Part shown: one piece after another, positions 574-64,000 of the stretch | Layout: each line of letters starts with the position of its first letter | Numbering within the stretch: position 1 is the stretch's first letter | Translations under genes and position numbers: made by a program | Notes under the pieces: model-generated | What the model was told of the DNA's origin: nothing | Databases searched by the model: none | What the model saw: the letters and a program-made list of their open reading frames with translations, nothing else | Assembly (NCBI GenBank): GCA_964016885.1 | Contig: OZ024742.1 | Span: 360,468,001 to 360,532,000, forward strand | From: Eledone cirrhosa | Taxonomy: Eukaryota | Direction of reading: 5' to 3' | DNA length: 64,000 nucleotides

Positions 574-3308
574 GAGAGCTGTTACCTTTACAGGGGAGGT
601 AGGACCGCTGCAATAAGAGTGTGATTCTGAGAGCTGTTACCTCTACAGAGGAGGTAGGTCTGCTGCAATAAGAGTGTGATTCTGAGAGCTGTTACCTCTA
701 CAGGGGAGATAGGACCGCTGCAATAAGAGTGTGAATGTAGAGCTGTTACCTCTACAGGGGAGGTAGGACAGCTGCAATAAGAGTGTGAATGTAGAGCTCT
801 TACCTCTACAGGGGAGGTAGGACCGCTGCAATAAGAGTGTGATTCTGAGAGCTGTTACCTCTACAGGGGAGGTAGGACCGCTGCAATAAGAGTGTGATTC
901 TGAGAGCTGTTACCTCTACAGGGGAGGTAGGACCGCTGCAATAAGAGTGTGATTCTGAGAGCTGTTACCTCCACTGGAGAGGTAGGACCGCTGCAATAAG
1001 AGTGTGAATGTAGAGCTGTTACCTCTACAGGGAAGGTAGGACCGCTGCAATAAGAGTGTGATTCTGATAGCTGTAACCTCTACAGGGAAGGTAGGGTCGC
1101 TGCAATAAGAGTGTGAATGTAGAGCTGTTACCTCTACAGGGGAGGTAGGACCGCTGCAATAAGAGTGTGATTCTGAGAGCTGTAACCTCCACTGGAGAGG
1201 TAGGACCGCTGCAATAAGAGTGTGAATGTAGAGCTGTTACCTCTACAGGGGAGGTAGGACCGCTGCAATAAGAGTGTGATTCTGAGAGCTGTAACCTCTA
1301 CAGGGAAGGTAGGGTCGCTGCAATAAGAGTGTGAATGTAGAGCTGTTACTTCTACAGGGGAGGTAGGACCGCTGCAATAAGAGTGTGATTCTGAGAGCTG
1401 TAACCTCTACAGGGGAGGTAGGGTCGCTGCAATAAGAGTGTGAATGTAGAGCTGTTACCTCTACAGGGGAGGTAGGACCGCTGCAATAAGAGTGTGATTC
1501 TGAGAGCTGTTACTTCTACAGGGGAGGTAGGACCGCTGCAATAAGAGTGTGATTCTGAGAGCTGTAACCTCTACAGGGGAGGTAGGGTCGCTGCAATAAG
1601 AGTGTGAATGTAGAGCTGTTACCTCTACAGGGGAGGTAGGACCGCTGCAATAAGAGTGTGATTCTGAGAGCTGTTACCTCTACAGGGGAGGTAGGACCGC
1701 TGCAATAAGAGTGTGATTCTGAGAGCTGTTACCTCTACAGGGGAGGTAGGACCGCTGCAATAAGAGTGTGATTCTGAGAGCTGTTACCTCTACAGGGGAG
1801 GTAGGACCGCTGCAATAAGAGTGTGATTCTGAGAGCTGTTACCTCCACTGGAGAGGTAGGACCGCTGCAATAAGAGTGTGAATGTAGAGCTGTTACCTCT
1901 ACAGGGAAGGTAGGACCGCTGCAATAAGAGTGTGATTCTGATAGCTGTAACCTCTACAGGGAAGGTAGGGTCGCTGCAATAAGAGTGTGAATGTAGAGCT
2001 GTTACCTCTACAGGGGAGGTAGGACCGCTGCAATAAGAGTGTGATTCTGAGAGCTGTAACCTCCACTGGAGAGGTAGGACCGCTGCAATAAGAGTGTGAA
2101 TGTAGAGCTGTTACCTCTACAGGGGAGGTAGGACCGCTGCAATAAGAGTGTGATTCTGAGAGCTGTAACCTCTACAGGGAAGGTAGGGTCGCTGCAATAA
2201 GAGTGTGAATGTAGAGCTGTTACTTCTACAGGGGAGGTAGGACCGCTGCAATAAGAGTGTGATTCTGAGAGCTGTAACCTCTACAGGGGAGGTAGGGTCG
2301 CTGCAATAAGAGTGTGAATGTAGAGCTGTTACCTCTACAGGGGAGGTAGGACCGCTGCAATAAGAGTGTGATTCTGAGAGCTGTTACTTCTACAGGGGAG
2401 GTAGGACCGCTGCAATAAGAGTGTGATTCTGAGAGCTGTAACCTCTACAGGGGAGGTAGGGTCGCTGCAATAAGAGTGTGAATGTAGAGCTGTTACCTCT
2501 ACAGGGGAGGTAGGACCGCTGCAATAAGAGTGTGATTCTGAGAGCTGTTACCTCTACAGGGGAGGTAGGACCGCTGCAATAAGAGTGTGATTCTGAGAGC
2601 TGTTACCTCTACAGGGGAGGTAGGACCGCTGCAATAAGAGTGTGATTCTGAGAGCTGTTACCTCCACTGGAGAGGTAGGACCGCTGCAATAAGAGTGTGA
2701 ATGTAGAGCTGTTACCTCTACAGGGAAGGTAGGACCGCTGCAATAAGAGTGTGATTCTGATAGCTGTAACCTCTACAGGGAAGGTAGGGTCGCTGCAATA
2801 AGAGTGTGAATGTAGAGCTGTTACCTCTACAGGGGAGGTAGGACCGCTGCAATAAGAGTGTGATTCTGAGAGCTGTAACCTCCACTGGAGAGGTAGGACC
2901 GCTGCAATAAGAGTGTGAATGTAGAGCTGTTACCTCTACAGGGGAGGTAGGACCGCTGCAATAAGAGTGTGATTCTGAGAGCTGTAACCTCTACAGGGAA
3001 GGTAGGGTCGCTGCAATAAGAGTGTGAATGTAGAGCTGTTACTTCTACAGGGGAGGTAGGACCGCTGCAATAAGAGTGTGATTCTGAGAGCTGTAACCTC
3101 TACAGGGGAGGTAGGGTCGCTGCAATAAGAGTGTGAATGTAGAGCTGTTACCTCTACAGGGGAGGTAGGACCGCTGCAATAAGAGTGTGATTCTGAGAGC
3201 TGTTACTTCTACAGGGGAGGTAGGACCGCTGCAATAAGAGTGTGATTCTGAGAGCTGTAACCTCTACAGGGGAGGTAGGGTCGCTGCAATAAGAGTGTGA
3301 TTCTGAGA
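574..3308. repeat. 54/55-bp tandem satellite (~50 units) with 15-16-unit higher-order repeats
   Basis: Unit GAGCTGTTACCTCTACAGGGGAGGTAGGACCGCTGCAATAAGAGTGTGATTCTGA (576 to 631) with a 54-bp ...GAATGTAGAG variant. The GTTACCTCCACTGG variant recurs at 971, 1845 and 2664 (spacings 874 and 819). Confidence 0.97.
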
Positions 3309-3395
3309 GGGGAGTATGTTGAATAAAATCATAATTAACTGATCTTTCTGTATTTTCTTTTCCTGAAGCCATGGACTTTTCAGCACTCCCTCGTG
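3282..3395 (+). mobile_element. Tc1/mariner-type right end (transposase C-terminus remnant plus TIR)
   Basis: 3282-3326 translates RCNKSVILRGEYVE*, resembling the mariner C-terminal motif. It ends in ...GGACTTTTCAGCACTCCCTCGTG, similar to the TIRs of the MITE at 45232-45479. Confidence 0.75.
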
Positions 3396-9549: not shown

Positions 9550-11396
9550 ATGTTCATCGATATCGTTGAAAACGAGGAAGCCATATTGGAAGCTAACGCC
9601 ACGCCTACCAAAAAAAGCGAGAAAGAGGGAACAACAATTCAAACTGTTGAACAGCCCCTCCTCTCCAATGAAAAAAAGAATATTAATTCGAGTGAAAACC
9701 TAAATTTTGAAGAAAAAAATAACAAGAAAATAAACACCACAAAAGATGAAACCAACAACATTGCAACAACAAGCAACAATGAAAGAAGCGAAAGCAACAA
9801 AGACAACAAAGTTTCTTTTGCCCAAACGGTCAGGAAAGCTATCGAATACAAGCCCATAGACATTACTAACGCTAAGCAGAACTTGCTAACTGCCAGAAAA
9901 TACGTATCTTTTGGGGAGGATGGTTCTTTTACGATCAACTCCCCAGAAGAAGTTTGTCAACAGGTATATAGGAATACCATAACCTTCAGGACTATATCCA
10001 ACGCAACAGGAAAGCCAGCTCAATTGACAGAAAGTCAAATTGAGCTGGTTCTGAAAGACATAAAAAAAGACATACTCTTTATTGAAAGAGGAAAGCTGTA
10101 TGCCAGCATTATGTCCGAATGGAGGACGAAATTCTGGCACAAAAATGCTCGGTGGCACCTATAGTGTCACCACAATACACCTTCTTCCCCACATATAAAG
10201 GAAGAAGAACACAAAGACTAAGAATGTGGAGCTCAACACCAGAAGTAAACATCTGGTCCGTCCTGACAGGATTCACGGACCTAGAAAAGGACATCCTAAT
10301 ATCAGCAGGTCAGTCCACCAGTGGACTGTTCGGGGGGAAAAGTCTGGAGGTTCTCTTACAGATGACACCTGAGAGAATCGCAGGAATACCCGACCGAGTA
10401 CTACTGGATGGTCGAACCTTTATTAATATTACGGTGGAAGGCAGGAGGCCCTCATGTTACCACTCCGCTGGTAGAGGTCACCTGAGGACTGCCTGCCCTC
10501 TACTAACAACAAAAAAAACACTGCTACAAACACCACAACAACAACAAAAACAACCAGCACCACCACCACAAAAACAACAAAATACACCACCATCACCACC
10601 ACAACGACAACAAAAACCAACAACACCACCTCCAGCACCACCACCACAACAACATCAACAACGACAGCTCAAGAAAACAACCCAAAACACGGTCCCACCC
10701 AGCCCCTCCCCACAGAACACAAATACAAAAACACACGCAGTGCATACACAACCTGGCAATATACCCCTCCCCTCCAATACGGAAGAGGAGCTCATATCCT
10801 CGGAAGACGAGGAGGTTCCCTTCCAAAAAGTCAAAAGGAAAAAACGTACACACACCACGCAAACAAAAATAACCCCACCTGACAACACAATACAGACAAC
10901 AAAACGCAAGCTCACCCAAGAACAACAAGCAAAAACAAACACAACAACACAAAAACTCTACACATACATAAACAAAAACAATAAAAACTTAACAGAAAAA
11001 ATAGAAAACAACCCTTCGGTACAAACCGAAGGGCCGAATTTTGCAATGGCAATGGGACTCCCTAACCTGAAAATGGTGAAAGTCCCACTTGACATTTTCA
11101 AAACATTGAAAAACATTTACCCTGAGGGCGTGGGGCCACCCTGCACCAGGCCACTCAACCGCGTCCTCCTGAAAGGTTTTTCCCTCCCCTCCTCAAACAC
11201 CCACACAATTCCAAACACCCCAACCCCTCCACACACTAATACCTTCACACCACCACAAACCACCACCCACCCAACAACCCCTCCACCACCCCCATGGAAA
11301 CTGAACAGCCCGGACCCCGGGACGCAGAGAGGTAAGTGCCTCTTTCTTTACCACCAACATGGCCGTGTTAAGAGTAGGTTGTCTAAATGCACGTAG
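9550..11396 (+). pseudogene. Tx1-type ORF1 (gag-like), frameshifted near 10120
   Basis: ORFs 9550-10164 and 10119-11396; degenerate zinc knuckle CYHSAGRGHLRTAC; P/Q/T-rich linker. Confidence 0.8.
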
Positions 11397-14300
11397 TCTG
11401 GGCTCACCTTGGAAGCAAGCTAAACTTCTAAATGACCTCAGGTCACAATGTATAAATGTGATGGTTATTTGCGAGGCCCGGATCAGCAGCGTGCGACAGC
11501 TGGCCCTCACCTTTGATGACTTTGAGATGCACGCATCTCTCTGTCAGCCCGGAGGTGGGGGTGGGGTTGTCGTTCTGTTGCAAAAACATCTGGGTCTCGT
11601 TACACAGACGGTACACTTGGACCCGGAGGGTCGACTCGTGGTTCTGGACCTTGGCAGTGATGAAGGCGAAGCTTTTAGGCTTGTCGCCGTTTACGCCCCT
11701 TTTGGGGTAATGTGGTCGGACTTCTTCCATCGTCTGGAGACTTTTCTAGGGACGTCCCGCTCCATGTTTTTAGTGGGGGACTGGAATGGTATACTAGATG
11801 CACGTTGGGACTATGTAGGGGCATGTCTCGATAGAGGGGGGTGTAACAACCTCAAGGGGTTAATCGGCCGATTTGACCTGGCCGATAGATATCGACTAGA
11901 TTTTCCGACTGTGCCAACCTGGACTTGGACAAATCACAGCGGTCAATCTAGATCGTACCTAGATAGGTTATTAGTTAGAATTAAAGATAGAGACTTTTTA
12001 AGTTGTCCAGAAATGCTCATGGTGAGCTATTCAGACCAGAAGTTAGTGACCTGCGTAGTTCACCTTGATAGAACGCATAGGCAGGGACCCGGTTACTGGA
12101 AGCTCAACTTGTCCTTACCGGCAAGTAGAGCTTACAGGGACCGGATTAGAACCTTAGTTAAGGAGCGGTTGACGGGCGCCATTGTCAACAGCAGGTGGTG
12201 GGGCTCTCTAAAAAGAGAGATTAGAGTAGTTTCAATAGGAGTTAGTAAGGAGTTAGCCTCAGATAGAAATAGGAAGGAAAGGGAGTTGGTAGTTAATGTT
12301 GAAGAGGCAATGAGAAGCGGCAACGTGGCCAGAGTGCAAGCGTCGAGAACGGCCTTGAGCCAGTTCTTCGACGCGTAACACGAAGGCTGCGTTGTCCGAA
12401 GCAAAATACGTGCTCTCGGAAATGAGGGGACCAAGCTGTTAGCTGTGCCCGCGTGACAGAAGCGAAAAGTGGGATTAGATCCACTATCCGGTCTTTGCGA
12501 GACCAGGATGGACGGGTGATCCTTGAACCTAAGCAAATGTGCGAGGCCTTTCAAAGGCACTTTGCCCGATTGTTCGGGAGGGCGGGGGGCCGGTTGGAGA
12601 TGTGAATTTCGGTCCATACCTCGACGTCCTGCCACGTCTTTCGGACAAGGAGGCGAGGTCCTGCGACGGGCCGATCTCAGCTGATGAAATAGGGGTCGTG
12701 CTGAGCCTATGCGGCAAACGCAAATCTCCAGGGCTCGATGGTCTGCCCTACGAACTATATATTAATATGCCGGACTTGTTCCCCGATCTCCTCGAGGCGG
12801 TCTACTGCAACTGGCAACAGAACGGGAGAATTCCCTGTTCTGTGACCAAGGGCGTGGTCTCGCTAGTGAGGAAGGACGAGAACAAGAAGGATGACATTAG
12901 TAATTTTAGGCCCATAACTCTGCTAAATGCAGAGTTAAAGATTTTGACCAAGGTGTTAGCGAAGAGGTTGGCGCTTGTCGTGGGGGGGCCTGGTGGGAGA
13001 TGCGCAGACATACGCTATCCCGTCCAAGTCCATCCACGACAACCTCCACCTCATGCGATACATCATAGAGAGGGTTGGTAACGAACCCGGCTTTGGTGGG
13101 GCCCTGATAAATTTGGATCAGTCTAAAGCTTTCGATAGGGTGGACCATGGTTAACTGGATGCGGTGCTAGCGGCGGCTGGTTTCGGAACCGTTTTCAGGG
13201 ACTGGATCACTGCCATGCACAGCAGCCGCATCTGCTCTAGAGTCAAGGTGAACGGCTACCTCTCAGAGCCGTTCGAAATCACCCGTTCCATCCGACAGGG
13301 GTGCCCTCTCTCCTCCCTTCTGTATGTATTGGTTCTCGAGCCACTACTGCGGAAGTTGGAGTTGTTGCAGGGCATCCTTTTGGAACCGGGATTGCGCAAA
13401 GCGGTGTCGGCCTATGCCGATGACGTAACAGTAATGGTGTCGACCACCGCGTAAATCGAGGCAATCGGCACCTTACTGGAGGAGTACGAAAGGTTGACAG
13501 GGGCTAAGCTGAACCGGGACAAGTCAGTCGCTTTGCAACTCGGCGAGTGGAGGGGCAAACCGATGTCGTCCGACGGTATCGTCGGATGGTGGACGGAGGG
13601 CCCGGTGAAGTTGCTTGAGGGTCTGGTTCGGACCGGACCTCCAGGTGGAGAAAAACTGGGGTGAGGTGACGAATAGGGTGTTTGCACTGACCCAGAAGTG
13701 AGCCGAGTGCAAACTATCCCTGAACGGTCGGGCAGAGGTGACGAACGCTTACATAGCGTCCGTCATCTATTACCGCTTGACTGTCGTGCCTTGCCCGGGT
13801 GAGATCCTCGCCAAAATGGAGCGCGCTCTCTTTCACTTCCTTTGGAAGAAGGAGTCTCCCCTGGTGAGGAGATCCATCTGCTGTCAACACCCTTTGAAAG
13901 GAGGGCTAGAGATGCTGTGGCTAAAAATGCGTAAACACGCATTGAGGCTACGGCACCTCCATGTATTCCTCACCGATCAACCGGTGTGGGCCCCGTTTGT
14001 GAGGCGAGCCTTCCCGAGGCTCGTCTCGCTCACCGAGCTGCAGTCCTGGGTGAAGCAAAGACCGAGTGTGCCCAGGCGCTCACGCCTCTCTGGCAGGCGG
14101 ACCCGGCTATCGGTGGAGACTCTACCTCGTCATTCTATAGAGGGCTGGTGGTTAGCAGGTGCGACGACGCCCTCGGATAAACCCTAGGCATGGAGGAGGA
14201 CGAACTGGCCAGCCTATTCGCTAGGACTTTCGGCTCGGGACCTATGGACAACTTCCAGAAATCCTTGGCCTGGCAGTGCTACCGAGGGGTTCTTCCCGTT

Positions 14301-14659
14301 CGGGATAAGCTCTACAGACACGGGCGCCCGGGTAGGGACCCCTCGAAAAAGATCTGTCCCAGATGCGTGCGAGACGAGGAAACCGTCGGGCACGCATTGG
14401 TACACTGCCCGGGCGTTACCGATCTGTGGGGCTATGTCGAACAACTGCTGTCACGGGTGGGACCAATTAGGTTGACCACCGAGTCCATTGTAACGATCAA
14501 GCCGCCTCCTCCCTTCAAAAATGAAGGAGAGGCGGTCTTCCTCTGTGTAATAGCCATGGTAAAAGAGGTTGTATGGTGGACACCTTCTTTCCGGCCAACA
14601 ACTGGTCCTTTTCTTCCGATACCATTTCGGAAGAAGGATCAGGATGGAGAGAGAGGTGT
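11359..14659 (+). pseudogene. Tx1/L1 ORF2 (AP endonuclease + reverse transcriptase), disrupted
   Basis: CLNARSL, VGDWNGIL, SYLDR, PGYWKLN, KSPGLDGLP, FRPITLLN, RQGCPLS, AYADDVT, CPRC..EETVGHALVHC. Confidence 0.93.
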
Positions 14660-14725
14660 ATCCCGAATTAAGCCGTACAGTGTTTAGCACCATCGTTGCC
14701 CTTTTGTTCAACACTGACAAAGGAA

Positions 14726-15575: not shown

Positions 15576-16105
15576 TATATATATATATATATTTACATAC
15601 ATAGATATATGTACGGTATTCGTGGTACCGGTTATTCGCGGAATTTTCCTTAGAACCCAACTAATAATTGTTCGTGGAAACCACCGTATATTCGTGGAAT
15701 CGTAAATATCTTCAGTGATTTTTAATTGCTTTTTTGTGGCAATATACATTTTTTAACGCTAAATTATACCGTATTTACCGGTATATTGGAGCCCTTTCCC
15801 ATAAGATGCTCTCTCTTTTTTTTATTATATTTTACGTTGTATTTTTACATTTATAGGTATTTTTATGAACCACGTCCGATATTCGCGGTTTTTCACTCTT
15901 CACTAGAGCTCTAGGAACGTAACCCCTGGTGTTGTCCAGCAGAAGCAATTTATTTTAGCCCGTTCCCTTGCACTCATGATTACATCAGAAACGTAACTTT
16001 TTACTCAATTTTGTTGTCTGATGAAATCACGTGACCAAGATCGTCATTGGAATATGTATCACATCCTTATTAATAAAGGACTCTTTACAACTTCGCATTT
16101 TGAGA

Positions 16106-16341
16106 GAAAAGATGAAATCGAAAATGCAACTGGAGTCTTTTTTTTTTAAATATATTTATTTGGTTCCTTTACCGGTTTCGCAGTTCTTGTGCTTTTCAAA
16201 AGTAGAATTGAGATAATCACACACCCTCCATCTCAATTCTACTTTTGAAAAGCACAAGAACTGCGAAACCGGTAAAGGAACCAAATAAATATATAAAAAA
16301 AAAAAAAAGACTTCAGTTGCATTTTCGATTTCCTCTTTTTC
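16106..16341. repeat. Inverted repeat, ~110-bp arms with a 15-bp spacer
   Basis: Arms 16106-16214 and 16230-16341. Confidence 0.93.
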
Positions 16342-16418
16342 CTTATACTTTCACTCGTGTAGGACACCATGTTCTTTTTCATTTTGCAAAAAAACCTCAC
16401 TTTCTAATATATATATAT

Positions 16419-16646
16419 ATTAGAAATTAGAAATTATAAGCTTTCACCGTATTTTAGACTAAAGAAATTTCTAGCCTGATAGTGGGGTTTATAACCCTCG
16501 GAGAAATGGAAAAATATGAGTGTTGCCGTACATGTACGGCAACACTCATCTTTTTCCATTTCTCCGAGGGTTATAAACCCCACTATCAGGCTAGAAATTT
16601 CTTTAGTCTAAAATACGGTGAAAGCTTATAATTTCTAATTTCTAAT
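16419..16646. repeat. 228-bp spacerless palindrome (one mismatch seen)
   Basis: Centred on GCCGTACA|TGTACGGC at 16532/16533; arms of 114 bp. Confidence 0.95.
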
Positions 16647-16705
16647 TTTCAAACTCGCGCACCGTTTCAAAAACATACTTACATGTTTACATTTATAATT
16701 TGCTT

Positions 16706-16853
<148 letters not shown>

Positions 16854-16861
16854 GTATATAT

Positions 16862-17679
16862 ATATTATATATAGAGTTATAAACTCAAAATAGTCTGTTA
16901 CAATTAAATAGCTCAAAGAAAGGAATATTTCCGAGCTGTCTAATACAAATGAATATATGATAGGGATAAACACTGATACAAGTATACATGTGTTCGAATT
17001 GCAAATGACCAAGTTAGCTAGATTGAAAAATACTAATTAAAATAATACGGTTTGCCTGTCTCGATTAAAAAAAATAAATCAATAAAAACAAAACTATTTT
17101 TAATTAGTATTTTTCAATCTAGCTAACTTGGTCATTTGCAATGCGAACACTTGTATACTTGTATCAGTGTTTATCTCTCTCATAAATTCATTTGTATTAC
17201 ACGGCTCGGAAATATTCCGTTCTTTGAGCTATTTAATTGTAAAAGACTATTTTGAGTTTATAACTCTATATATAATATTCTCGGCTCCATACGTAGAGCT
17301 AATTTTTAGTCCCATAAAACCGGCTGCTATTTTTAGCGGCACGTGTATAGGACGTGCTAGACACTGTGACACATGTGCGTTCAACAACAGATATCTCTCA
17401 GTCTTCTTAAGTATTTTGAAGTGAAATGTACCAATTTCTGGATTCCCGCAGAAGAGCACAGGAATAGTAACTTTCATTTAATTGTTGCGAAACAAATTTA
17501 GAATTTGTCCGGGTATCACGGCTATTGCCAATATAGGTTTGTTTTTATTGATTTATAATTTTAAATCGAGACAGGCAAACAGTATTATTTTAATTAGTAT
17601 TTTTCAATCGAGCTAACTTGGTCATTTGCAATACGAACACATGTATATTTGTATCAGTGTTCATCCCTCTCATATATTC

Positions 17680-17682
<3 letters not shown>
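16862..17682 (+). mobile_element. Retrozyme-like element family 2, locus A: inverted partial unit plus ~1.2 tandem units (~490 bp), within (TA)n
   Basis: Inverted arms 16862-17043 / 17097-17278; TTAATTAGTATTTTTCAATC repeats at ~17100 and ~17590; homologous to 46985-48080. Confidence 0.8.
17435..17517 (+). ncRNA. Type I hammerhead ribozyme, family 2 (U4>A core variant) with a putative pseudoknot
   Basis: GAUUCCCG CAGAAGA GCA...UGC GAAA CAAAUU-UAG-AAUUUG UC CGGGUAUC; upstream UUUCUG is complementary to loop-II CAGGAA. Confidence 0.8.
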
Positions 17683-17727
<45 letters not shown>

Positions 17728-20433: not shown

Positions 20434-21840
20434 CTGGTAGGTAACAGGGGAGGTAACAGGGGAGGTAACATGGTAGGTAACAGGGGAGGTAACAGGGGAG
20501 GTAACAGGGGAGGTAACAGGGTAGGTAACAGGGGAGGTAACAGGGTAGGTAACAGGGGAGGTAACAGGGGAGGTAACAGGGGAGGTAACAGGGGAGGTGA
20601 CAGGGGAGGTGACAGGGTAGGTAACAGGGTAGGTAACAGGGGAGGTAACAGGGGAGGTAACAGGGGAGGTGACAGGGGAGGTAACAGGGGAGGTGACAGG
20701 GGAGGTAACAGGGGAGGTGACAGGGGAGGTAACATGGTAGGTAACAGGGGAGGTAACAGGGGAGGTAACAGGGGAGGTAACAGGGGAGGTAACAGGGTAG
20801 GTAACATGGTAGGTAACAGGGGAGGTAACAGGGGAGGTAACAGGGGAGGTAACAGGGTAGGTAACAGGGGAGGTAACAGGGGAGGTGACAGGGGAGGTAA
20901 CAGGGTAGGTAACAGGGGAGGTAACAGGGGAGGTAACATGGTAGGTAACAGGGGAGGTAACAGGGTAGGTAACAGGGTAGGTAACAGGGGAGGTAACAGG
21001 GGAGGTAACAGGGGAGGTAACAGGGGAGGTGACAGGGGAGGTAACAGGGTAGGTAACAGGGGAGGTAACAGGGGAGGTAACAGGGTAGGTAACAGGGGAG
21101 GTAACAGGGGAGGTGACAGGGGAGGTAACAGGGTAGGTAACAGGGGAGGTAACAGGGGAGGTAACATGGTAGGTAACAGGGGAGGTAACAGGGGAGGTAA
21201 CAGGGGAGGTAACAGGGTAGGTAACAGGGGAGGTAACAGGGTAGGTAACAGGGGACGTAACAGGGGAGGTGACAGGGGAGGTAACAGGGTAGGTAACAGG
21301 GGAGGTAACAGGGGAGGTAACATGGTAGGTAACAGGGGAGGGAACAGGGGAGGTAACAGGGTAGGTAACAGGGGACGTAACAGGGGAGGTGACAGGGGAG
21401 GTAACAGGGTAGGTAACAGGGGAGGTAACAGGGGAGGTAACATGGTAGGTAACAGGGGAGGTAACAGGGGAGGTAACAGGGGAGGTAACAGGGGAGGTAA
21501 CAGTGGACGTAACAGGGGAGGTAACAGGGGAGGTAACAGGGTAGGTAACAGGGGAGGTAACAGGGTAGGTAACAGGGGAGGTAACAGGGGAGGTAACAGG
21601 GTAGGTGACAGGGGAGGTAACAGGGGAGGTAACAGGGTAGGTAACAGGGGACGTAACAGGGGAGGTGACAGGGGAGGTAACAGGGGAGGTAACAGGGGAG
21701 GTAACAGGGTAGGTAACAGGGTAGGTAACAGGGGAGGTAACTGGGTAGGTAACAGGGAGGTAACAAGGGGAAGTAACAGGGTAGGTAATAAGGTAGGTAA
21801 CAAGGGGAAGTAACAGGGAGGGGGTAACAGGGAGAGGTAA
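20434..21840. repeat. 12-bp G-rich minisatellite (AGGTAACAGGGG)n, ~115 units
   Basis: Seen directly, with GGTA, GTGAC, CATG and GACG variants. Confidence 0.97.
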
Positions 21841-21921
21841 TCAGGACGTTTACGGACGTGTCTCTGTGTTGTTGTGTGAGAAAGAAAATGAAAAAAAGTG
21901 TGTATGTATGTATGTATATAT

Positions 21922-52269: not shown

Positions 52270-52299
<30 letters not shown>

Positions 52300-55200
52300 A
52301 AGAAGAGATAGTTCTAGAGAAAGAGGGAAGAAGAGATAGTTCTAGAGAGAGGGGGGAAGAAGAGATAGTTCTAGAGAGAGGGGGGAAGAAGAGATAGTTC
52401 TAGAGAGAGGGGGGAAGAAGAGATAGTTCTAGAGAGAGGGGGGAAGAAGAGATAGTTCTAGAGAGAGGGGGGAAGAAGAGATAGTTCTAGAGAGAGGAGG
52501 AAGAAGAGATACTTCTAGAGAGAGGGGGGAAGAAGCGATAGTTCTAGAGAGAGAGGGAAGAAGAGATAATTCTAGAGAGAGGGGGGAAGAAGCGATAGTT
52601 CTAGAGAGAGGGGGAAGAAGAGATAATTCTACAGAAAGGAGGTGGGAGAATAGATAGTTCTAGAGAGGGGGGAAGAAGAGATAGTACTAGAGAGAGGGGG
52701 ATAAGAGACAGTTCGAGAGAGAGGGAGGAGAACAGATAGTTCTAGAGAGAGGGGTCGAAGAAGAGATAGTTCTAGAGAGAGTGTGCAAGAAGAGATAGTT
52801 CAAGAGAGAGGGGACAAGAAGAGATAGTTCTAGAAAGAGGGGGGAAGAAGAGATAGTTCTAGAGAGAGGGGACAAGAAGAGATAGTTCTAGAAAGAGGGG
52901 GGAAGAAGAGATAGTTCTAGAGAGGGGTGGAGGAGTAGATATAGTTCTAGAGAGAGGGGGAAGAGATAGTTGTAGAGAGAGAGGGAAGAGATACTTCTAG
53001 AGAGAGAAGGAAGAAGACATAGTTCTAGAGAGAGGGGGGAAGAAGAGATAGTTCTACAGAGGGGTAAGAAGCGATAGTTCTAAGAGAGGGGGAAGAAGAG
53101 ATAGGTCTAGAGAGGGGGAAGAAGAGATAGTTCTAGAGAGAGGTAGAAGAAGAGATAGTTCTAGAGAGAGGTGGAAGAAGAGATAGTTCTAGAGAGAGGT
53201 GGAAGAAGAGATAGTTCTAGAGGGCGGGGGAAGAAGAGATAGTTCTAGAGAGAGGGGGGAATAAGAGATAGTTCTGCAGAGAGGGGGGAAGAAGAGATAG
53301 TTCTAGAGAGAGGCGGCGGAGAAGAGACAGTTCTAGAGAGAAGAGGAAGAAGAGACAGTTCTAGAGAGAGGGGGAATAAGAGATAGTTCTATAGAGAGGG
53401 GGGGTAAGAAGAGATAGTTGTAAAGAGAGGGGGAAGAAGAGATAGTTTTAGAGAGAGGGGGTGGGCAAAGAGATAATTCTAGAGAGAGGAGGGAAGAAAA
53501 GATAGATCTAGAGAGAGGGGGGAAGAAGAGATAGTTAGAGAGAGAGTGGGCAAGAAGAGATAGTTCTAGAGAGAGGGGACAAGAAGAGATAGTTCTAGAA
53601 AGAGGGGGGAAGTAGAGATAGTTCTAGAGAAAGGGGGAAGAAGAGATAGTTCTAGAGAGGGGTGGGGGAGTAGATATAGTTCTAGAGAGAGGGGGAAGAA
53701 GAGATAGTTGTAGAGAGAGAGGGAAGAGATACTTCTAGAGAGAGAGGGAAGAAGACATAGTTCTAGAGAGAGAGGGGGAAGAAGAGATAGTTCTACAGAG
53801 GGGTAAGACGCGATAGTTCTAAGAGAGGGGGAAGAAGAGATAGGGCTAGAGAGGGGGGAAGAAGAGATAGTTCTAGAGAGAGGTGGAAGAAGAGATGGTT
53901 CTAGAGAGAGGTGGAAGAAGAGACAGTTCTAGAGAGAGGGGGAATAAGAGATAGTTCTATAGAGAGGGGGGTAAGAAGAGATAGTTCTATAGAGAGGGGG
54001 AAGAAGAGATAGTTTTAGAGAGAGGGGGTGGGCGAAGAGATAATTCTAGAGAGAGGGGGAAGAAAAGATAGTTCTAGAGAGAGGGGGGAAAGAAGAGATA
54101 GTTAAAGAGAGAGTGGGCAAGAAGAGATAGTTCTAGAGAGAGGGGACAAGAAGAGATAGTTCTAGAAAGAGCGGGGCAGAAGAGATAGTTCTAGAGAGAG
54201 GGGGAAGAAGAGATTTTTCTAGAGAGGGGTGGGGGAGTAGATATAGTTCTAGAGAGAGGGGTAAGAAGAGATACTTCTAGAGAGAGAGGGAAGAAGACAT
54301 AGTTCTAGAGACAGAGGGGGAAGAAGAGATAGTTCTACAGAGGGGTAAGAAGTGATAGTTCTAAGAGAGGGGGAAGAAGAGATAGGTCTAGAGAGGGGGG
54401 AAGAAGAGATAGTTCTAGAGAGAGGTGGAAGAAGAGATAGTTCTAGAGAGAGGGGGGAAGAAGAGATAGTTCTAGAGAGGGGGGAGTAGTGATAGTTCTA
54501 GAGAGCGGGGTAAGAAGAGATAGTTGTAAAGAGAGAGCGAAGAGATACTTCTAGAGAGAGAGGGAAGAAGACATAGTTCTAGAGAGAGGGGGGAAGAAGA
54601 GATAGTTCTAGAGAGGGGGGAATGAGTGATAGTTCTAGAGAGAGTGGGGAAGAAGAGATAGTTCAAGAGAGAGGGGGGAAGAAGAGATAGTTCTAGAGAG
54701 AGAGGGAAGAAGAGATAGTTCTAGAGAGAGTGGTGAAGAAGAGATAATTCTAGAGAGAGGGGGAAGAAGAGATAGTTCTAGAGAGTGGGGGGAAGAAGAG
54801 ATAGTTCTAGAGAGGGGGGAATCAGTGATAGTTCTAGAGAGAGTGGGGAAGAAGAGATAGTTCAAGAGAGAGGGGGGAAGAAGAGATAGTTCTAGAGAGA
54901 GGGGGATGAAGAGATAGTTCTAGAGAGAGGGGGAAGAAGAGATAGTTCTAGAGAGAGGGGGAAGAAGAGATAGTTCCAGAGAGAGGGGGAAGAAGAGATA
55001 GTTCTAGAGAGAGGGGGGAGAAGAGATAGTTCTAGAGAGAGGGGGAGAAGAAGAGATAGTTCTATAGAGGGGGGAAAAGAGATAGTTCTATAGAGGGGGT
55101 AAGAAGAGATAGTTCTAGAGAGAGCGGAAAGAAGAGATAGTTCTAGAGAGAGGGGAAAAAGAGATAGTTCTAGAGAGAGGCGGAAGAAGAGATAGTTCTA

Positions 55201-58200
55201 GAGAGAGGGGGAAAAGAGTTAGTTCTAGAGAGAGGGGGAAGTAGATATAGTTCTAGAGAGATGGGGAAGAAGAGATAATTCTAGAGAGAGGGGGGAGGAA
55301 GATATAGTTCCAGAATGAGAGGGGGAAAGAAATAGTTCTAGAGAGAGGGGGGAAGAAGAGATAGTTCTAGAGAGAGGGAGAAGAAGAGATAGTTCTAGAG
55401 AGAGGGGGAAAAGAGATAGTTCTAGAGAGAGGGGGAAGAAGTGATAGTTCTAGAGAGAGGGGGAAGAAGAGATAGTTCTAGAGAGAGAGGGAAGAAGAGA
55501 TAGTTCTAGAGAGAGTGGTAAAAGTGATAGTTCTAGAGAGAGGGGGGAAGTAGATATAGTTCTAGAAAGGGGGGAAGAAGAGATAGTTCTAGAGAGAGGG
55601 GGAAGAAGAGATAATTCTAGAGAGAGGGGGAAGAAGAGGTAGTTCTAGAGAGAGGGGGACAAGAGATAGTTCTAGAGAGAGAGGGGAAGTAGATATAGTT
55701 CCAGAGAGAGAGGGGGAAAAGAAATAATTCTAAAGAGAGGGGGGAAGAAGAGATAGTTGTAGAGAGAGGGAGAAGAGGAGATAGTTCTAGAGAGAGGGGT
55801 GAAGAAGAGATAGTTCTAGAGAGAGGGGGGAAGAAGAGATAGTTCTAGAGAGAAGAAGAGATAGTTCTAGAGAGAGGGGTGAAGAAGAGATAGTTCTAGA
55901 GAGGGGGGGTAGAAGAGATAGTTCTATTGAGTGAGGGGAGAAGAGAGTGTTCTAGAGAAAGAGGGAAGAGATAGTTCTAGAGAGAGGGGGAAGAAGAGAT
56001 AGTACTAGAGAGGGGTGGGGGAGTAGATATAGTTCTAGAGAGAGGGGGAAGAAGAGATAGTTGTAGAGAGAGAGGGAAGAGATACTTCTAGAGAGAGAGG
56101 GAAGAAGACATAGTTCTAGAGAGAGAGGGGGAAGAAGAGATAGTTCTACAGAGGGGTAAGACGCGATAGTTCTAAGAGAGGGGGAAGAAGAGATAGGGCT
56201 AGAGAGGGGGGAAGAAGAGATAGTTCTAGAGAGAGGTGGAAGAAGAGATGGTTCTAGAGAGAGGTGGAAGAAGAGACAGTTCTAGAGAGAGGGGGAATAA
56301 GAGATAGTTCTATAGAGAGGGGGTAAGAAGAGATAGTTCTATAGAGAGGGGGAAGAAGAGATAGTTTTAGAGAGAGGGGGTGGGCGAAGAGATAATTCTA
56401 GAGAGAGGGGGAAGAAAAGATAGTTCTAGAGAGAGGGGGGAAAGAAGAGATAGTTAAAGAGAGAGTGGGCAAGAAGAGATAGTTCTAGAGAGAGGGGACA
56501 AGAAGAGATAGTTCTAGAAAGAGCGGGGCAGAAGAGATAGTTCTAGAGAGAGGGGGAAGAAGAGATTTTTCTAGAGAGGGGTGGGGGAGTAGATATAGTT
56601 CTAGAGAGAGGGGTAAGAAGAGATACTTCTAGAGAGAGAGGGAAGAAGACATAGTTCTAGAGACAGAGGGGGAAGAAGAGATAGTTCTACAGAGGGGTAA
56701 GAAGTGATAGTTCTAAGAGAGGGGGAAGAAGAGATAGGTCTAGAGAGGGGGGAAGAAGAGATAGTTCTAGAGAGAGGTGGAAGAAGAGATAGTTCTAGAG
56801 AGAGGGGGGAAGAAGAGATAGTTCTAGAGAGGGGGGAGTAGTGATAGTTCTAGAGAGCGGGGTAAGAAGAGATAGTTGTAAAGAGAGAGCGAAGAGATAC
56901 TTCTAGAGAGAGAGGGAAGAAGACATAGTTCTAGAGAGAGAGGGGAAGAAGAGATAGTTCTAGAGAGGGGGGGAATGAGTGATAGTTCTAGAGAGAGTGG
57001 GGTAGAAGAGATAGTTCAAGAGAGAGGGGGGAAGAAGAGATAGTTCTAGAGAGAGAGGGAAGAAGAGATAGTTCTAGAGAGAGTGGTGAAGAAGAGATAA
57101 TTCTAGAGAGAGGGGGAAGAAGAGATAGTTCTAGAGAGAGGGGGGAAGAAGAGATAGTTCTAGAGAGGGGGGAATGAGTGATAGTTCTAGAGAGAGTGGG
57201 GAAGAAGAGATAGTTCAAGAGAGAGGGGGGAAGAAGAGATAGTTCTAGAGAGAGGGGGATGAAGAGATAGTTCTAGAGAGAGGGGGAAGAAGAGATAGTT
57301 CTAGAGAGAGGGGGAAGAAGAGATAGTTCCAGAGAGAGGGGGAAGAAGAGATAGTTCTAGAGAGAGGGGGGAGAAGAGATAGTTCTAGAGAGAGGGGGAG
57401 AAGAAGAGATAGTTCTAGAGAGGGGGGAATAAGAGATAGTTCTATAGAGGGGGGTAAGAAGAGATAGTTCTAGAGAGAGCGGAAAGAAGAGATAGTTCTA
57501 GAGAGAGGGGAAAAAGAGATAGTTCTAGAGAGAGGCGGAAGAAGAGATAGTTCTAGAGAGAGGGGGAAAAGAGTTAGTTCTAGAGAGAGGGGGAAGTAGA
57601 TATAGTTCTAGAGAGATGGGGAAGAAGAGATAATTCTAGAGAGAGGGGGGAGGAAGATATAGTTCCAGAATGAGAGGGGGAAAGAAATAGTTCTAGAGAG
57701 AGGGGGGAAGAAGAGATAGTTCTAGAGAGAGGGAGAAGAAGAGATAGTTCTAGAGAGAGGGGGAAAAGAGATAGTTCTAGAGAGAGGGGGAAGAAGTGAT
57801 AGTTCTAGAGAGAGGGGGAAGAAGAGATAGTTCTAGAGAGAGAGGGAAGAAGAGATAGTTCTAGAGAGAGGGGTAAAAGTGATAGTTCTAGAGAGAGGGG
57901 GGAAGTAGATATAGTTCTAGAAAGGGGGGAAGAAGAGATAGTTCTAGAGAGAGGGGGAAGAAGAGATAATTCTAGAGAGAGGGGGAAGAAGAGATAGTTC
58001 TAGAGAGAGGGGGACAAGAGATAGTTCTAGAGAGAGAGGGGAAGTAGATATAGTTCCAGAGAGAGAGGGGGAAAAGAAATAATTCTAAAGAGAGGGGGGA
58101 AGAAGAGATAGTTGTAGAGAGAGGGAGAAGAGGAGATAGTTCTAGAGAGAGGGGTGAAGAAGAGATAGTTCTAGAGAGAGGGGGGGAAGAAGAGATAGTT

Positions 58201-61200
58201 CTAGAGAGAAGAAGAGATAGTTCTAGAGAGAGGGATGAAGAAGAGATAGTTCTAGAGAGGGGGGGTAGAAGAGATAGTTCTATTGAGTGAGGGGAGAAGA
58301 GAGTGTTCTAGAGAAAGAGGGAAGAGATAGTTCTAGAGAGAGGGGGAAGAAGAGATAGTACTAGAGAGATGGGAGTGGGGACGAAGAGATAGTTCTAGAG
58401 AGAGGGGTGAGAAGAGATAGTTCTAGAGAGCGGGGGAAGAAGAGATAGTTCTAGAGAGAGGGGGTAAGAAGAGATAGTTCTAGAGAGAGGGGGCGGTGAA
58501 GATATAGTTCTAGAGAGAGGGGTGTAGAAGAGACAGTTCTAGAGAGAGGAGAGAAGAAGAGATAGTTCTAGAGAGAGGGGGAAGAAGAGATAGTTCTAGA
58601 GAGAGCGGGATAGAAGAGATAGTTCTAGAGAGATGGGGTGAAGAAGAGATAGTTCTAGAAAGGGGGGTAGAAGAGATAGTTCTAGAGAGAGTGGGAAGAA
58701 GAGATAGTTCTAGAAAGAGGGGGAAGAAGAGATAGTTCTAGAGAGAGGGGGAAGAAGAGATAGTTCTAGACAGAGGGGGAGGAAGAAGAGAAAGTTCTAG
58801 AGACAGGGAGGAAGAAGAGATAGTTCTAGGTGGAACGGGAAGGAGACATAGTTCTAGAGGGAGGGGGAGGGAGTAGAGACAGTTCTAGAGAGAGGAGGAA
58901 CAAGAGATAGTTCTAGAGAGAAAGAGAGAAGAAGAGATAGTTCTAGAGAGAGGGGGATGTAGATATAGTTCCAGAGAGAGAGGGTAAAAGAGATAATTCT
59001 AGATAGAGGGGGAAGAAGAGATTGTTCTAGAGAGAGGGGAAAGAAGAGATAGTTTAGAGAGAGGGGGAAAAGAGATAGTTCTAGAGAGAGGCGGAAGAAG
59101 AGATAGTTCTAGAGAGAGGGGGAAAAGAGTTAGTTCTAGAGAGAGGGGGATGAAGTGATAGTTCTAGAGAGAGGGGGAAGAAGAGATAGTTCTAGAGAGA
59201 GGGGGAGGAAGAGATAGTTCTAGAGAGAGGGGGAAGAAGAGATAGTTCTAGAGAGAGGGGGAGAAGAGATAGTTCTAGAGAGAGGGGGAGAAGAAGAGAT
59301 AGTTCTAGAGAGGGGGGAATAAGAGATAGTTCTATAGAGGGGGTAAGAAGAGATAGTTCTAGAGAGAGGCGGAAGAAGAGATAGTTCTAGTGAGAGGGGG
59401 AAAAGAGTTAGTTCTAGAGAGAGGGGGAAGTAGATATAGTTCTAGAGAGAGGGGGAAGAAGAGATAATTCTAGAGAGAGGGGGCAAGTAGATATAGTTCC
59501 AGAATGAGAGGGGGAAAGAAATCGTTCTAGAGAGAGGGGGGAAGAAGAGATAGTTCTAGAGAGTGGGGGAAAAGAGATAGTTCTAGAGAGAGGGGGAAGA
59601 AGTGATAGTTCTAGAGAGAGGGTGAAGAAGAGATAGTTCTAGAGAGAGGGGTAAAAGAGATAGTTCTAGAGAGAGGGGGAAGAAGTGATAGTTCTAGAGA
59701 GAGGGGGAAGAAGAGATAGTTCTAGAGAGAGAGGGAAGAAGAGATAGTTCTAGAGAGAGGGGTAAAAGTGATAGTTCTAGAGAGAGGGGGGAAGTAGATA
59801 TAGTTCTAGAAAGGGGGGAAGAAGAGATAGTTCTAGAGAGAGGGGGAAGAAGAGATAATTCTAGAGAGAGGGGGAAGAAGAGATAGTTCTAGAGAGAGGG
59901 GGACAAGAGATAGTTCTAGAGAGAGAGGGGAAGTAGATATAGTTCCAGAGAGAGAGGGGGAAAAGAAATAATTCTAAAGAGAGGGGGGAAGAAGAGATAG
60001 TTGTAGAGAGAGGGAGAAGAGGAGATAGTTCTAGAGAGAGGGGTGAAGAAGAGATAGTTCTAGAGAGAGGGGGGAAGAAGAGATAGTTCTAGAGAGAAGA
60101 AGAGATAGTTCTAGAGAGAGGGGTGAAGAAGAGATAGTTCTAGAGAGGGGGGGTAGAAGAGATAGTTCTATTGAGTGAGGGGAGAAGAGAGTGTTCTAGA
60201 GAAAGAGGGAAGAGATAGTTCTAGAGAGAGGGGGAAGAAGAGATAGTACTAGAGAGGGGTGGGGGAGTAGATATAGTTCTAGAGAGAGGGGGAAGAAGAG
60301 ATAGTTGTAGAGAGAGAGGGAAGAGATACTTCTAGAGAGAGAGGGAAGAAGACATAGTTCTAGAGAGAGAGGGGAAGAAGAGATAGTTCTACAGAGGGGT
60401 AAGACGCGATAGTTCTAAGAGAGGGGGAAGAAGAGATAGGGCTAGAGAGGGGGGAAGAAGAGATAGTTCTAGAGAGAGGTGGAAGAAGAGATGGTTCTAG
60501 AGAGAGGTGGAAGAAGAGACAGTTCTAGAGAGAGGGGGAATAAGAGATAGTTCTATAGAGAGGGGGGTAAGAAGAGATAGTTCTATAGAGAGGGGGAAGA
60601 AGAGATAGTTTTAGAGAGAGGGGGTGGGCGAAGAGATAATTCTAGAGAGAGGGGGAAGAAAAGATAGTTCTAGAGAGAGGGGGGAAAGAAGAGATAGTTA
60701 AAGAGAGAGTGGGCAAGAAGAGATAGTTCTAGAGAGAGGGGACAAGAAGAGATAGTTCTAGAAAGAGCGGGGCAGAAGAGATAGTTCTAGAGAGAGGGGG
60801 AAGATGAGATTTTTCTAGAGAGGGGTGCGGGAGTAGATATAGTTCTAGAGAGAGGGGTAAGAAGAGATACTTCTAGAGAGAGAGGGAAGAAGACATAGTT
60901 CTAGAGACAGAGGGGGAAGAAGTGATAGTTCTACAGAGGGGTAAGAAGTGATAGTTCTAAGAGAGGGGGAAGAAGAGATAGGTCTAGAGAGGGGGGAAGA
61001 AGAGATAGTTCTAGAGAGGGGGGAGTAGTGATAGTTCTAGAGAGCGGGGTAAGAAGAGATAGTTGTAAAGAGAGAGCGAAGAGATACTTCTAGAGAGAGA
61101 GGGAAGAAGACATAGTTCTAGAGAGAGGGGGGGAAGAAGAGATAGTTCTAGAGAGGGGGGGAATGAGTGATAGTTCTAGAGAGAGTGGGGAAGAAGAGAT

Positions 61201-64000
61201 AGTTCAAGAGAGAGGGGGGAAGAAGAGATTGTTCTAGAGAGAGAGGGAAGAAGAGATAGTTCTAGAGAGAGTGGTGAAGAAGAGATAATTCTAGAGAGAG
61301 GGGGAAGAAGAGATAGTTCCAGAGAGAGGGGGAAGAAGAGATAGTTCTAGAGAGAGGGGGGAGAAGAGATAGTTCTAGAGAGAGGGGGAGAAGAAGAGAT
61401 AGTTCTAGAGAGGGGGGAATAAGAGATAGTTCTATAGAGGGGGGTAAGAAGAGATAGTTCTAGAGAGAGCGGAAAGAAGAGATAGTTCTAGAGAGAGGGG
61501 AAAAAGAGATAGTTCTAGAGAGAGGCGGAAGAAGAGATAGTTCTAGAGAGAGGGGGAAAAGAGTTAGTTCTAGAGAGAGGGGGAAGTAGATATAGTTCTA
61601 GAGAGATGGGGAAGAAGAGATAATTCTAGAGAGAGGGGGGAGGAAGATATAGTTCCAGAATGAGAGGGGGAAAGAAATAGTTCTAGAGAGAGGGGGGAAG
61701 AAGAGATAGTTCTAGAGAGAGGGAGAAGAAGAGATAGTTCTAGAGAGAGGGGGAAAAGAGATAGTTCTAGAGAGAGGGGGAAGAAGTGATAGTTCTAGAG
61801 AGAGGGGGAAGAAGAGATAGTTCTAGAGAGAGTGGGAAGAAGAGATAGTTCTAGAGAGAGGGGTAAAAGTGATAGTTCTAGAGAGAGGGGGGAAGTAGAT
61901 ATAGTTCTAGAAAGGGGGGAAGAAGAGATAGTTCTAGAGAGAGGGGGAAGAAGAGATAATTCTAGAGAGAGGGGGAAGAAGAGATAGTTCTAGAGAGAGG
62001 TGGACAAGAGATAGTTCTAGAGAGAGAGGGGAAGTAGATATAGTTCCAGAGAGAGAGGGGGAAAAGAAATAATTCTAAAGAGAGGGGGGAAGAAGAGATA
62101 GTTGTAGAGAGAGGGAGAAGAGGAGATAGTTCTAGAGAGAGGGGTGAAGAAGAGATAGTTCTAGAGAGAGGGGGGGAAGAAGAGATAGTTCTAGAGAGAA
62201 GAAGAGATAGTTCTAGAGAGAGAGGGGTGAAGAAGAGATAGTTCTAGAGAGGGGGGTAGAAGAGATAGTTCTATTGAGTGAGGGGAGAAGAGAGTGTTCT
62301 AGAGAAAGAGGGAAGAGATAGTTCTAGAGAGAGGGGGAAGAAGAGATAGTACTATAGAGATGGGGGTGGGGACGAAGAGATAGTTCTAGAGAGAGGGGGG
62401 AGAAGAGATAGTTCTAGAGAGCGGGGGAAGAAGAGATAGTTCTAGAGAGAGGGGGTAAGAAGAGATAGTTCTAGAGAGAGGGGGCGGTGAAGATATAGTT
62501 CTAGAGAGAGGGGTGTAGAAGAGACAGTTCTAGAGAGAGGAGAGAAGAAGAGATAGTTCTAGAGAGAGGGGGAAGAAGAGATAGTTCTAGAGAGAGCGGG
62601 ATAGAAGAGATAGTTCTAGAGAGATGGGGTGAAGAAGAGATAGTTCTAGAAAGGGGGGTAGAAGAGATAGTTCTAGAGAGAGTGGGAAGAAGAGATAGTT
62701 CTAGAGAGAGGGGGAAGAAGAGATAGTTCTAGAGAGAGGGGGAAGAAGAGATAGTTCTAGACAGAGGGGGAGGAAGAAGAGAAAGTTCTAGAGACAGGGA
62801 GGAAGAAGAGATAGTTCTAGGTGGAACGGGAAGGAGACATAGTTCTAGAGGGAGGGGGAGGGAGTAGAGATAGTTCTAGAGAGAAAGAGAGAAGAAGAGA
62901 TAGTTCTAGAGAGAGGGGGATGTAGATATAGTTCCAGAGAGAGAGGGTAAAAGAGATAATTCTAGATAGAGGGGGAAGAAGAGATTGTTCTAGAGAGAGG
63001 GGAAAGAAGAGATAGTTTAGAGAGAGGGGGAAAAGAGATAGTTCTAGAGAGAGGCGGAAGAAGAGATAGTTCTAGAGAGAGGGGGAAAAGAGTTAGATCT
63101 AGAGAGAGGGGGATGAAGTGATAGTTCTAGAGAGAGGGGGAAGAAGAGTTAGTTCTAGAGAGAGGGGGAGGAAGAGATAGTTCTAGAGAGAGGGGGAAGA
63201 AGAGATAGTTCTAGAGAGAGGGGGAGAAGAGATAGTTCTAGAGAGAGGGGGAGAAGAAGAGATAGTTCTAGAGAGGGGGGAATAAGAGATAGTTCTATAG
63301 AGGGGGTAAGAAGAGATAGTTCTAGAGAGAGGCGGAAGAAGAGATAGTTCTAGTGAGAGGGGGAAAAGAGTTAGTTCTAGAGAGAGGGGGAAGTAGATAT
63401 AGTTCTAGAGAGAGGGGGAAGAAGAGATAATTCTAGAGAGAGGGGGCAAGTAGATATAGTTCCAGAATGAGAGGGGGAAAGAAATCGTTCTAGAGAGAGG
63501 GGGGAAGAAGAGATAGTTCTAGAGAGTGGGGGAAGAAGAGATAGTTCTAGAGAGAGGGGGAAAAGAGATAGTTCTAGAGAGAGGGGGAAGAAGTGATAGT
63601 TCTAGAGAGAGGGGGAAGAAGAGATAGTTCTAGAGAGAGAGGGAAGAAGAGATAGTTCTAGAGAGAGGGGGGAAGAAGAGATAGTTCTAGAGAGAAGAAG
63701 AGATAGTTCTAGAGAGAGGGGTGAAGAAGAGATAGTTCTAGAGAGGGGGGTAGAAGAGATAGTTCTAAAGAGAGTGGGAAGAAGAGATAGTTCTAGAGAG
63801 AGGGGGGGAAGAAGAGATAGTTCTATTGAGTGAGGGGAGAAGAGAGTGTTATAGAGAAAGAGGGAAGAGATAGTTCTAGAGAGAGGGGTAAGAAGAGATA
63901 GTACTAGAGAGATGGGGGTGGGGAAGAAGAGATAGTTCTAGAGAGAGGGGGGAGAAGAGATAGTTCTAGAGAGCGGGGGAAGAAGAGATAGTTCTAGAGA
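52270..64000. repeat. ~28-bp purine-rich XbaI satellite, >11.7 kb, with kb-scale higher-order duplications
   Basis: Unit AGTTCTAGAGAGAGGGGGAAGAAGAGAT; rare variants recur at ~2.35 kb and ~4.0 kb spacing; runs off the window end. Confidence 0.98.

Follow-up and report, generated by a model that had tools for sequence, protein, structure and literature searches.

A dispersed hammerhead ribozyme repeat of Eledone cirrhosa with a flank/loop-II helix and Penelope-type insertion anatomy

Two hammerhead loci and their host repeat

Two loci in a 64,000-nucleotide stretch of Eledone cirrhosa DNA (contig OZ024742.1, positions 360,468,001 to 360,532,000; hereafter the window) had been proposed to carry divergent copies of one hammerhead ribozyme. 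The proposal raises the question of whether their shared fold is maintained by selection and what kind of element carries it. The window was considered as part of the 3.0-Gb genome and motif copies were counted genome-wide.

Locus A belongs to an insertion made of 1.2 monomers on the plus strand (17098..17682, period ~490), whose short 3' end is followed by (TA)n at 17682-17724, and of an inverted, 5'-truncated copy with a long 3' end on the minus strand (16862..17100), which abuts (TA)n at 16709-16873. Sequence scanning and pairing place a type I hammerhead at 17441..17517 (+), composed of stem I (17441-48/17510-17), the core CAGAAGA (17449-55), stem II GCA/UGC (17456-58/17486-88), a 27-nt loop II that begins CAGGAA (17459-85), GAAA (17489-92) with a short near-palindromic stem III, and a GUC ending at 17509, after which cleavage is predicted. 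The 5' flank (17419..17440, +) is complementary to loop II over ~18 bp, and its proximal six nucleotides (UUUCUG, 17435-40) are the strand that had been assigned to a pseudoknot. The flank, stems I and II, the GUC and the start of loop II all read as first described. Stem I has a U.U mismatch private to this locus (sister copies read GAUACCCG), and the core carries U4A at 17450, so that locus A departs from the type I core at that position.

Locus B belongs to an insertion of 1.4 monomers on the plus strand (47313..48081, period 535) with a long 3' end followed by (TA)n, paired with an inverted, 5'-truncated copy with a short 3' end (46972..47315, -) that abuts (TA)n at 46961-46989. The same scan and pairing identified a type I hammerhead at 47695..47822 (+), with stem I (47695-702/47815-22), the core CUGAGGA (47703-09), stem II GAG/CUC (47710-12/47742-44), a 29-nt loop II that begins CUGAAC (47713-41), GAAA (47745-48) with a long stem III hairpin, and a GUC ending at the predicted cut after 47814. 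Its 5' flank (47670..47694, +) is complementary to loop II over ~22 bp, the proximal strand being GUUCAG at 47689-94. The core agrees with the canonical C3 U4 G5 A6 N7 G8 A9 / G12 A13 A14 / U16 H17. A second hammerhead with a canonical core lies in the inverted copy (47141..47274, -), where cleavage is predicted 3' of 47149 on that strand. Both copies are located as predicted; the perfect stem I attributed to this locus holds for the inverted copy (UAAGUACC) but not for the plus-strand copy, UAAAUACC, which contains one C.A mismatch. Stem III of locus B is a diverged head-to-tail duplication of a ~37-nt unit (hairpin z -3.6); judged from sequence it is a real hairpin, and lineage A later shortened the duplicated unit. 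Inverted repeats of another element (87% alike; 46889-46985 and 48108-48207) flank insertion B.

A type I hammerhead scan of the window that tolerated at most one core change returned the three copies plus two weak chance matches, and a strict-core scan left only the two B copies. An Rfam search of the window and at both loci gave no hammerhead match, with E up to 10 at the loci, and only microsatellite-driven miRNA matches; the length of loop II and of stem III is a possible reason for the missing match. Other features of the window are a LINE-like reverse transcriptase (RT) frame of 1140 aa (31206-34631, -), AP-endonuclease and zf-RVT fragments (11305-12378 and 14181-14687, both +), two frames with weak C2H2 zinc-finger matches (30224-30973 and 26338-27219, both +) and long satellites at 574-3309 (55 bp), 20439-21845 (12/24), 38427-40834 (3), 41140-43695 (32) and 52287-64000 (28).

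Genome-wide, the hammerhead motif is carried by a dispersed non-coding repeat with a unit of 490-570 bp and one type I hammerhead per unit, and loci A and B represent two among ~10 subfamilies of it. Pattern searches of the genome returned 662 matches to a C3-type core and 745 to a lineage H pattern (reversed-pattern controls, 0 and 0), or ~1,400 exact motif matches summed over both searches. Dispersion was also followed by DNA searches, which gave ~2,700 and ~2,600 candidates for loci A and B, the best 40 of each being scored. Five closed monomers measured 496-567 nt at 31-33% GC; none has coding capacity (longest open reading frame 30-83 aa), and all five fold well when circularised (z -3.6 to -5.7 relative to 25 shuffles). 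Closed tandems of 2-3 monomers occur. Copies within a subfamily are 93-98% identical over 150 nt outside the ribozyme. A tree of this region, midpoint-rooted only and built from at most 7 copies per lineage, with lineage I omitted and the rule-based labels of two copies wrong, resolves three groups, H, B/D/E/F and C/G/A, and places the U4A copies on their own branch. A further divergent subfamily, seen in one copy (L219, minus strand, ~3190-3330), has its own fully paired stem I and an altered flank/loop pairing. A literature search found no description of the repeat family; the supplements of Perreault 2011 and Cervera 2020 may hold similar cases.

With low-GC, non-coding tandem monomers that each contain one type I hammerhead (5/5 monomers), the repeat has the make-up of a retrozyme. 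It shares with the metazoan non-LTR retrozymes described by Cervera and de la Pena 2020 (PMC7229834) a single type I hammerhead per monomer, short tandems, the absence of coding sequence, a GC content below 45%, thousands of copies and the presence of Penelope-like elements (PLEs) in the same genome. It differs from them in that its monomers, at 490-570 nt, exceed the reported 170-400 nt, which is a described range and not a strict criterion, and in that most insertions hold 1-2 monomers plus an inverted partner. The expression as linear and circular RNA that characterises retrozymes was looked for among sequencing runs: none is listed as RNA, and three of unspecified kind, all of one sample, look like DNA. 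Where the usual retrozyme hammerhead makes a loop 1-loop 2 contact, the present one has a Watson-Crick helix between flank and loop II. In the text of PMC7229834 accessible to a word search, the words 'pseudoknot' and 'inverted' are absent.

Covariation in the stems and the flank/loop-II duplex

The original prediction read compensatory changes across three helices as a sign of selection on the fold. That view is supported: double-sided changes do occur in stem I, stem II and the flank/loop-II helix across subfamilies. The differences between loci A and B from which it argued are real, but they cover two lineages and few independent events, and the support comes from the further subfamilies. 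Stem I exists in eight distinct fully paired versions, with double-sided changes at 6 of its 8 pairs over the subfamilies and at 5 of 8 in an alignment of 19 hand-picked copies. In a larger set of 133 copies, which are not independent, pairs 2 and 3 of stem II are altered on both sides, pair 2 of the pseudoknot alternates between U-A and A-U and its pair 6 between U-A and G-C. The 19-copy alignment has 11 of 29 pairs changed on both sides, a number that none of 500 shuffles reached, under a control that ignores relatedness; the true register pairs at 88.5% and slid registers at 35-54%. Three E/F rows of that alignment slipped by one column, which inflates its pseudoknot count. Because of a MAFFT error in the 3' strand of stem II, the 19-copy test includes a single stem II pair, and the stem II counts are those of the 133-copy set. 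The motif has three helices, with stem I open and with covariation, as a type I hammerhead should. Among 59 U4A copies, pair 2 of stem I is U-A in 29, C-G in 24, U.G in 4 and mismatched in 2, a mixture indicating that the stem kept compensating. In subfamily G the basal pair of stem II is replaced by an A.C mismatch.

The proximal flank/loop-II helix is nearly complete in A and in B/C/D (5.8-5.9 of 6 positions paired in the same non-independent 133 copies) and retains 5-6 pairs in E. Subfamily E has a 7-bp stem I and a 2-bp stem II, each one pair shorter; altering these stem lengths is reported to lower the rate of pseudoknot hammerheads (Perreault 2011, PMC3088659). The position of the helix would allow it to stand in for the contact between loops I and II, as first suggested, and its register is kept as the E stems shrink. 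The idea itself is already in the literature: according to Perreault 2011, pseudoknots occur in all three hammerhead types and in ~40% of representatives, and were needed for fast cleavage where tested. As in those ribozymes, which include human C10, the helix is of 4-6 bp and joins a stem II extension to the strand preceding stem I, stem II is short (2-3 bp) and stem lengths are coupled. We infer by circular permutation that the geometry corresponds to the type II consensus of Perreault. The present family differs from theirs in its 14-24 bp of complementarity, its mobile-repeat host and its whole subfamilies with U4C, U4A or A9U. The pistol-like pseudoknot hammerhead (Zhan 2024, PMC11300833) likewise combines a hammerhead core with a 6-bp pseudoknot, but its topology was rejected for this family: there the pseudoknot replaces helix II, and here stem II is present, with double-sided changes, and the pseudoknot adjoins it.

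The strand before stem I forms 4 bp or more with the stem II extension in A-E, and this helix is broken in F. In subfamily F, which has a canonical core, the broken proximal pseudoknot accounts for 22 of the first 100 of the 272 canonical-core matches (counted by eye); U.U at pseudoknot pair 2 was seen in 2 canonical-core matches. The break in F suggests that the proximal pseudoknot is dispensable for spread.

The potential pairing is also longer than the six base pairs first proposed, complementarity extending over ~20 bp at both loci. Each of 14 lineage representatives has a flank/loop-II duplex of 14-24 bp (z -3.6 to -6.3), equalled by no more than 2 of 300 shuffles; whole hairpins of the window copies have z of -1.7 (A) and -2.3 (B). 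This length gives weight to an alternative in which the duplex would act mainly as a brake, the 14-24-bp hairpin forming first as the RNA is transcribed and straining or excluding the 3-bp stem II, so that cleavage would be delayed until another partner or a protein peels off its distal part. In A and B just 5-6 nt lead back to stem II, which would be short for spanning 20 bp on geometric grounds; the distal duplex is kept in F where the proximal part is broken; and in nested-only folding the duplex dominates local minimum-energy structures and often outcompetes stem I. That folding program is blind to pseudoknots, however, and the linker, at 5-56 nt across lineages, is mostly long enough. A competing partner for the flank does exist at ~+80 to +97, but it binds weakly, at about -6 to -8 kcal for the majority of lineages and with better sites elsewhere, and appears in 2 of 7 circular folds. 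The proximal pairs, moreover, covary and keep their register with stems I and II. The middle segment of the duplex shows coordinated changes in H and I. When loops were exchanged between lineages, however, the outcome was mostly negative, the own loop being the best partner in just 2/14 swaps, so that the distal part is backed mainly by conservation and less by covariation. We consider a duplex that is mainly a brake unlikely, although it can overlap with the reading preferred below.

Catalytic core states among subfamilies

Canonical U4 is present in 272 of the 662 C3-type matches and absent from the other 390. The U4A of locus A had been taken to make that copy probably inactive. The change is there, but it is a fixed trait of a whole subfamily and not decay of one locus: the first 100 of 409 matches to the stem I pattern of A comprise 93 U4A, 7 U4C and 0 U4. 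The tree suggests that U4C arose before U4A. In lineage H, the largest subfamily, U3 goes with A8 in each of the first 100 of 745 matches, even though C3 and G8/C8 would also have passed the search pattern. Replacement of C3-G8 by U3-A8 amounts to compensation within the catalytic core, and the swap is a known natural covariation (PMC3088659; PMC4209133). Lineage H2 (L175-L204) adds A9U to U3-A8 in 62 of 74 matches, with a 77-nt loop II and copies ~97% alike. In a tally of 167 copies, whose C3, G5 and A6 were partly fixed by the search patterns, G12, A13, A14 and A15.1 were kept in 163-167 and GUC in 158.

Reports on other hammerheads bear on these changes. When a different hammerhead was scanned by mutation, single changes in CUGA left little activity (bioRxiv 2022.05.17.492349), yet a natural U4C viroid variant is described as active enough in vivo to stay infectious (PMC3088659). 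We regard the U4A ribozyme of lineage A as slowed or inactive with about equal likelihood, and a large subfamily has spread with a mutated core that is likely weakened. Neither a perfect core nor the proximal pseudoknot appears to be required for a lineage to spread, which fits the in vitro insertion by an anole PLE, unaffected in hammerhead-dead mutants (Frangieh 2024, PMC11167929).

The same observations could be turned into a second alternative, in which the fold serves as a structural signal for a PLE protein or stabilises the RNA, so that catalysis could be lost and the U4A subfamily would be dead. It would explain why U4C and then U4A lineages were amplified repeatedly as stem I went from U-A to C-G via U.G, and it agrees with the anole result and with arrays that exceed one monomer and run through the cut site (12/49 and 14/59 in the array sets below). 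Against this stand ~1,000 of the ~1,400 motif matches with a canonical or U3-A8 core, the absence of any lineage-level change in G12, A13, A14 and GUC even in A, and the activity of the U4C viroid variant. A fold without catalysis is in our view improbable, and it too can overlap with the main reading.

Insertion anatomy and relation to Penelope-like elements

The manner of insertion was read from 134 repeat loci. Element ends lie by (TA)5 in 213/342 cases, against 76/794 background segments. The 3' ends cluster ~+180 and ~+260 from the predicted cut in 44/49 B arrays and 50/59 A arrays, and the 5' ends of these arrays are scattered. Of 56 divergent inverted pairs, 43 join a long 3' end to a short one (17/19 in B, 26/37 in A); four have like ends and nine have an end elsewhere. 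The repeat thus possesses an inverted 5'-truncated partner, two fixed 3' ends with one tail and a microsatellite target. PLEs are described as partial tandems that are accompanied by a shortened inverted copy, tailed at one end and biased towards (TA)n (Craig 2021, PMC8557442), and the tail is reported to be the stretch between two internal RT starts (PMC11167929). The match of the insertion anatomy to this tail and inverted-copy pattern argues for mobilisation of the repeat by a PLE. Neptune and Poseidon PLEs (PMC8557442, PMC11167929, PMC4209133) resemble the repeat in that they target (TA)n, are truncated at the 5' end, form partial tandems with a truncated copy in inverse orientation, have a tail at one end and a hammerhead upstream of the 3' end, and include the U3-A8 core variant. 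They differ from it in that the repeat has no open reading frame, a full three-stem in place of a minimal hammerhead, and a tail of ~80 nt instead of 30-40.

A 230-bp SINE-like repeat (L051:1155-1383 and other loci; 95% alike between copies) often adjoins the element in (TA)n. This shared neighbour proved to be a repeat of its own, perhaps of tRNA origin by its resemblance.

Candidate mobilisers occur in the genome, where elements ending in (TA)n contain long open frames with RT and GIY-YIG domains. Two of these, L205 (938-aa frame) and L207 (1096-aa frame), have RT, GIY-YIG and a Cys motif before the endonuclease and were labelled Neptune by the motif described in PMC8557442. The window itself contains the 3' end of a Neptune-type PLE at 16103-16420 (core 16245-16251, +; inverted part 16103-16214), 88% like a genomic Neptune element (L206). 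This remnant holds a minimal U3-A8 hammerhead with a palindromic stem III, creates the 131-bp palindrome at 16157-16287 that Rfam mistook for a miRNA, and is probably what the original prediction had called a first hammerhead family. A second long palindrome lies between it and insertion A (16413-16650). The minimal hammerhead of L206 (5595-5645) and that of lineage H1 (L180) are alike at 11 of 13 non-core positions (simulated P ~2e-4, post hoc), and a second Neptune family is like the lineage H hammerhead at 5 of the 13. A common origin of the Neptune minimal hammerhead and the lineage H hammerhead is possible.

The PLE-type anatomy would also be expected if the unit were a pseudo-LTR and the coding copies of its autonomous PLE had escaped sampling, the best 40 of ~2,700 candidates having been scored per DNA search. 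No RT plus GIY-YIG frame is joined to the unit in the 134 repeat loci or in 48 GIY-YIG loci (30 loci and 18 longer stretches, from 150 matches scored among 10,596 candidates). What lies beside the unit in the 134 loci is more unit, (TA)n or unrelated repeats, with no shared coding extension, and closed tandems of 2-3 monomers exist. In none of the 48 GIY-YIG loci does the unit serve as the element's own terminal repeat, and no terminal sequence is common to both beyond separate insertions and low-complexity matches. A pseudo-LTR is accordingly most unlikely. Scarcely credible is the idea that the paired changes came from template-switch repair of hairpins and not from selection: palindromes abound in the element and slippage alters stem III, but wobble and mismatch intermediates (U.G in stem I, U.U at pseudoknot pair 2) are seen and the U3-A8 swap lies outside any hairpin stem.

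The repeat is best read as a non-LTR retrozyme that is likely mobilised by a Neptune-type element. Tandem copies would be transcribed into multimeric RNA, and cleavage after GUC would release unit-length RNAs, with stem I held against stem II by the proximal 6-bp flank/loop-II helix, much as in pseudoknot hammerheads already described. The monomers may circularise, and uncut multimers could serve as templates too. A Penelope-like RT/endonuclease, likely of the Neptune clade, would then copy the RNA into (TA)n DNA, with reverse transcription starting at two internal sites that lie ~180 and ~260 nt 3' of the cut and would each serve one target strand. On this view the U4C/U4A subfamily represents a slowed ribozyme that still spreads, since cleavage would help insertion but is likely not strictly required for it. 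We hold the whole of this reading, in which the hammerhead cuts multimers to unit RNAs and a PLE copies them into (TA)n, to be reasonably probable. More tentative, and on balance doubtful, is a joint reading in which the hammerhead derives from the Neptune minimal ribozyme, a 20-bp clamp times its cleavage, Neptune carries out insertion, and subfamilies with cleavage tuned down or off (U4C, U4A, A9U, broken pseudoknot) spread nonetheless.

The pseudoknot alone is known; what the family adds is the PLE-type signature of its insertions, a long duplex and lineages with mutated cores, which together are of moderate interest. PLE mobilisation of animal retrozymes is, in PMC7229834, a proposal only; here the long/short-end signature of a PLE is seen on a non-coding hammerhead repeat. 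The role of hammerhead cleavage in PLE-type insertion is called unclear in PMC8557442, and in vitro cleavage was not needed (PMC11167929). The subfamilies are young and vary in the state of their core and pseudoknot, so that cleavage rate, circle level and copy number can be compared directly across them; if the joint reading were true, they would form a natural allelic series that shows what the ribozyme is for.
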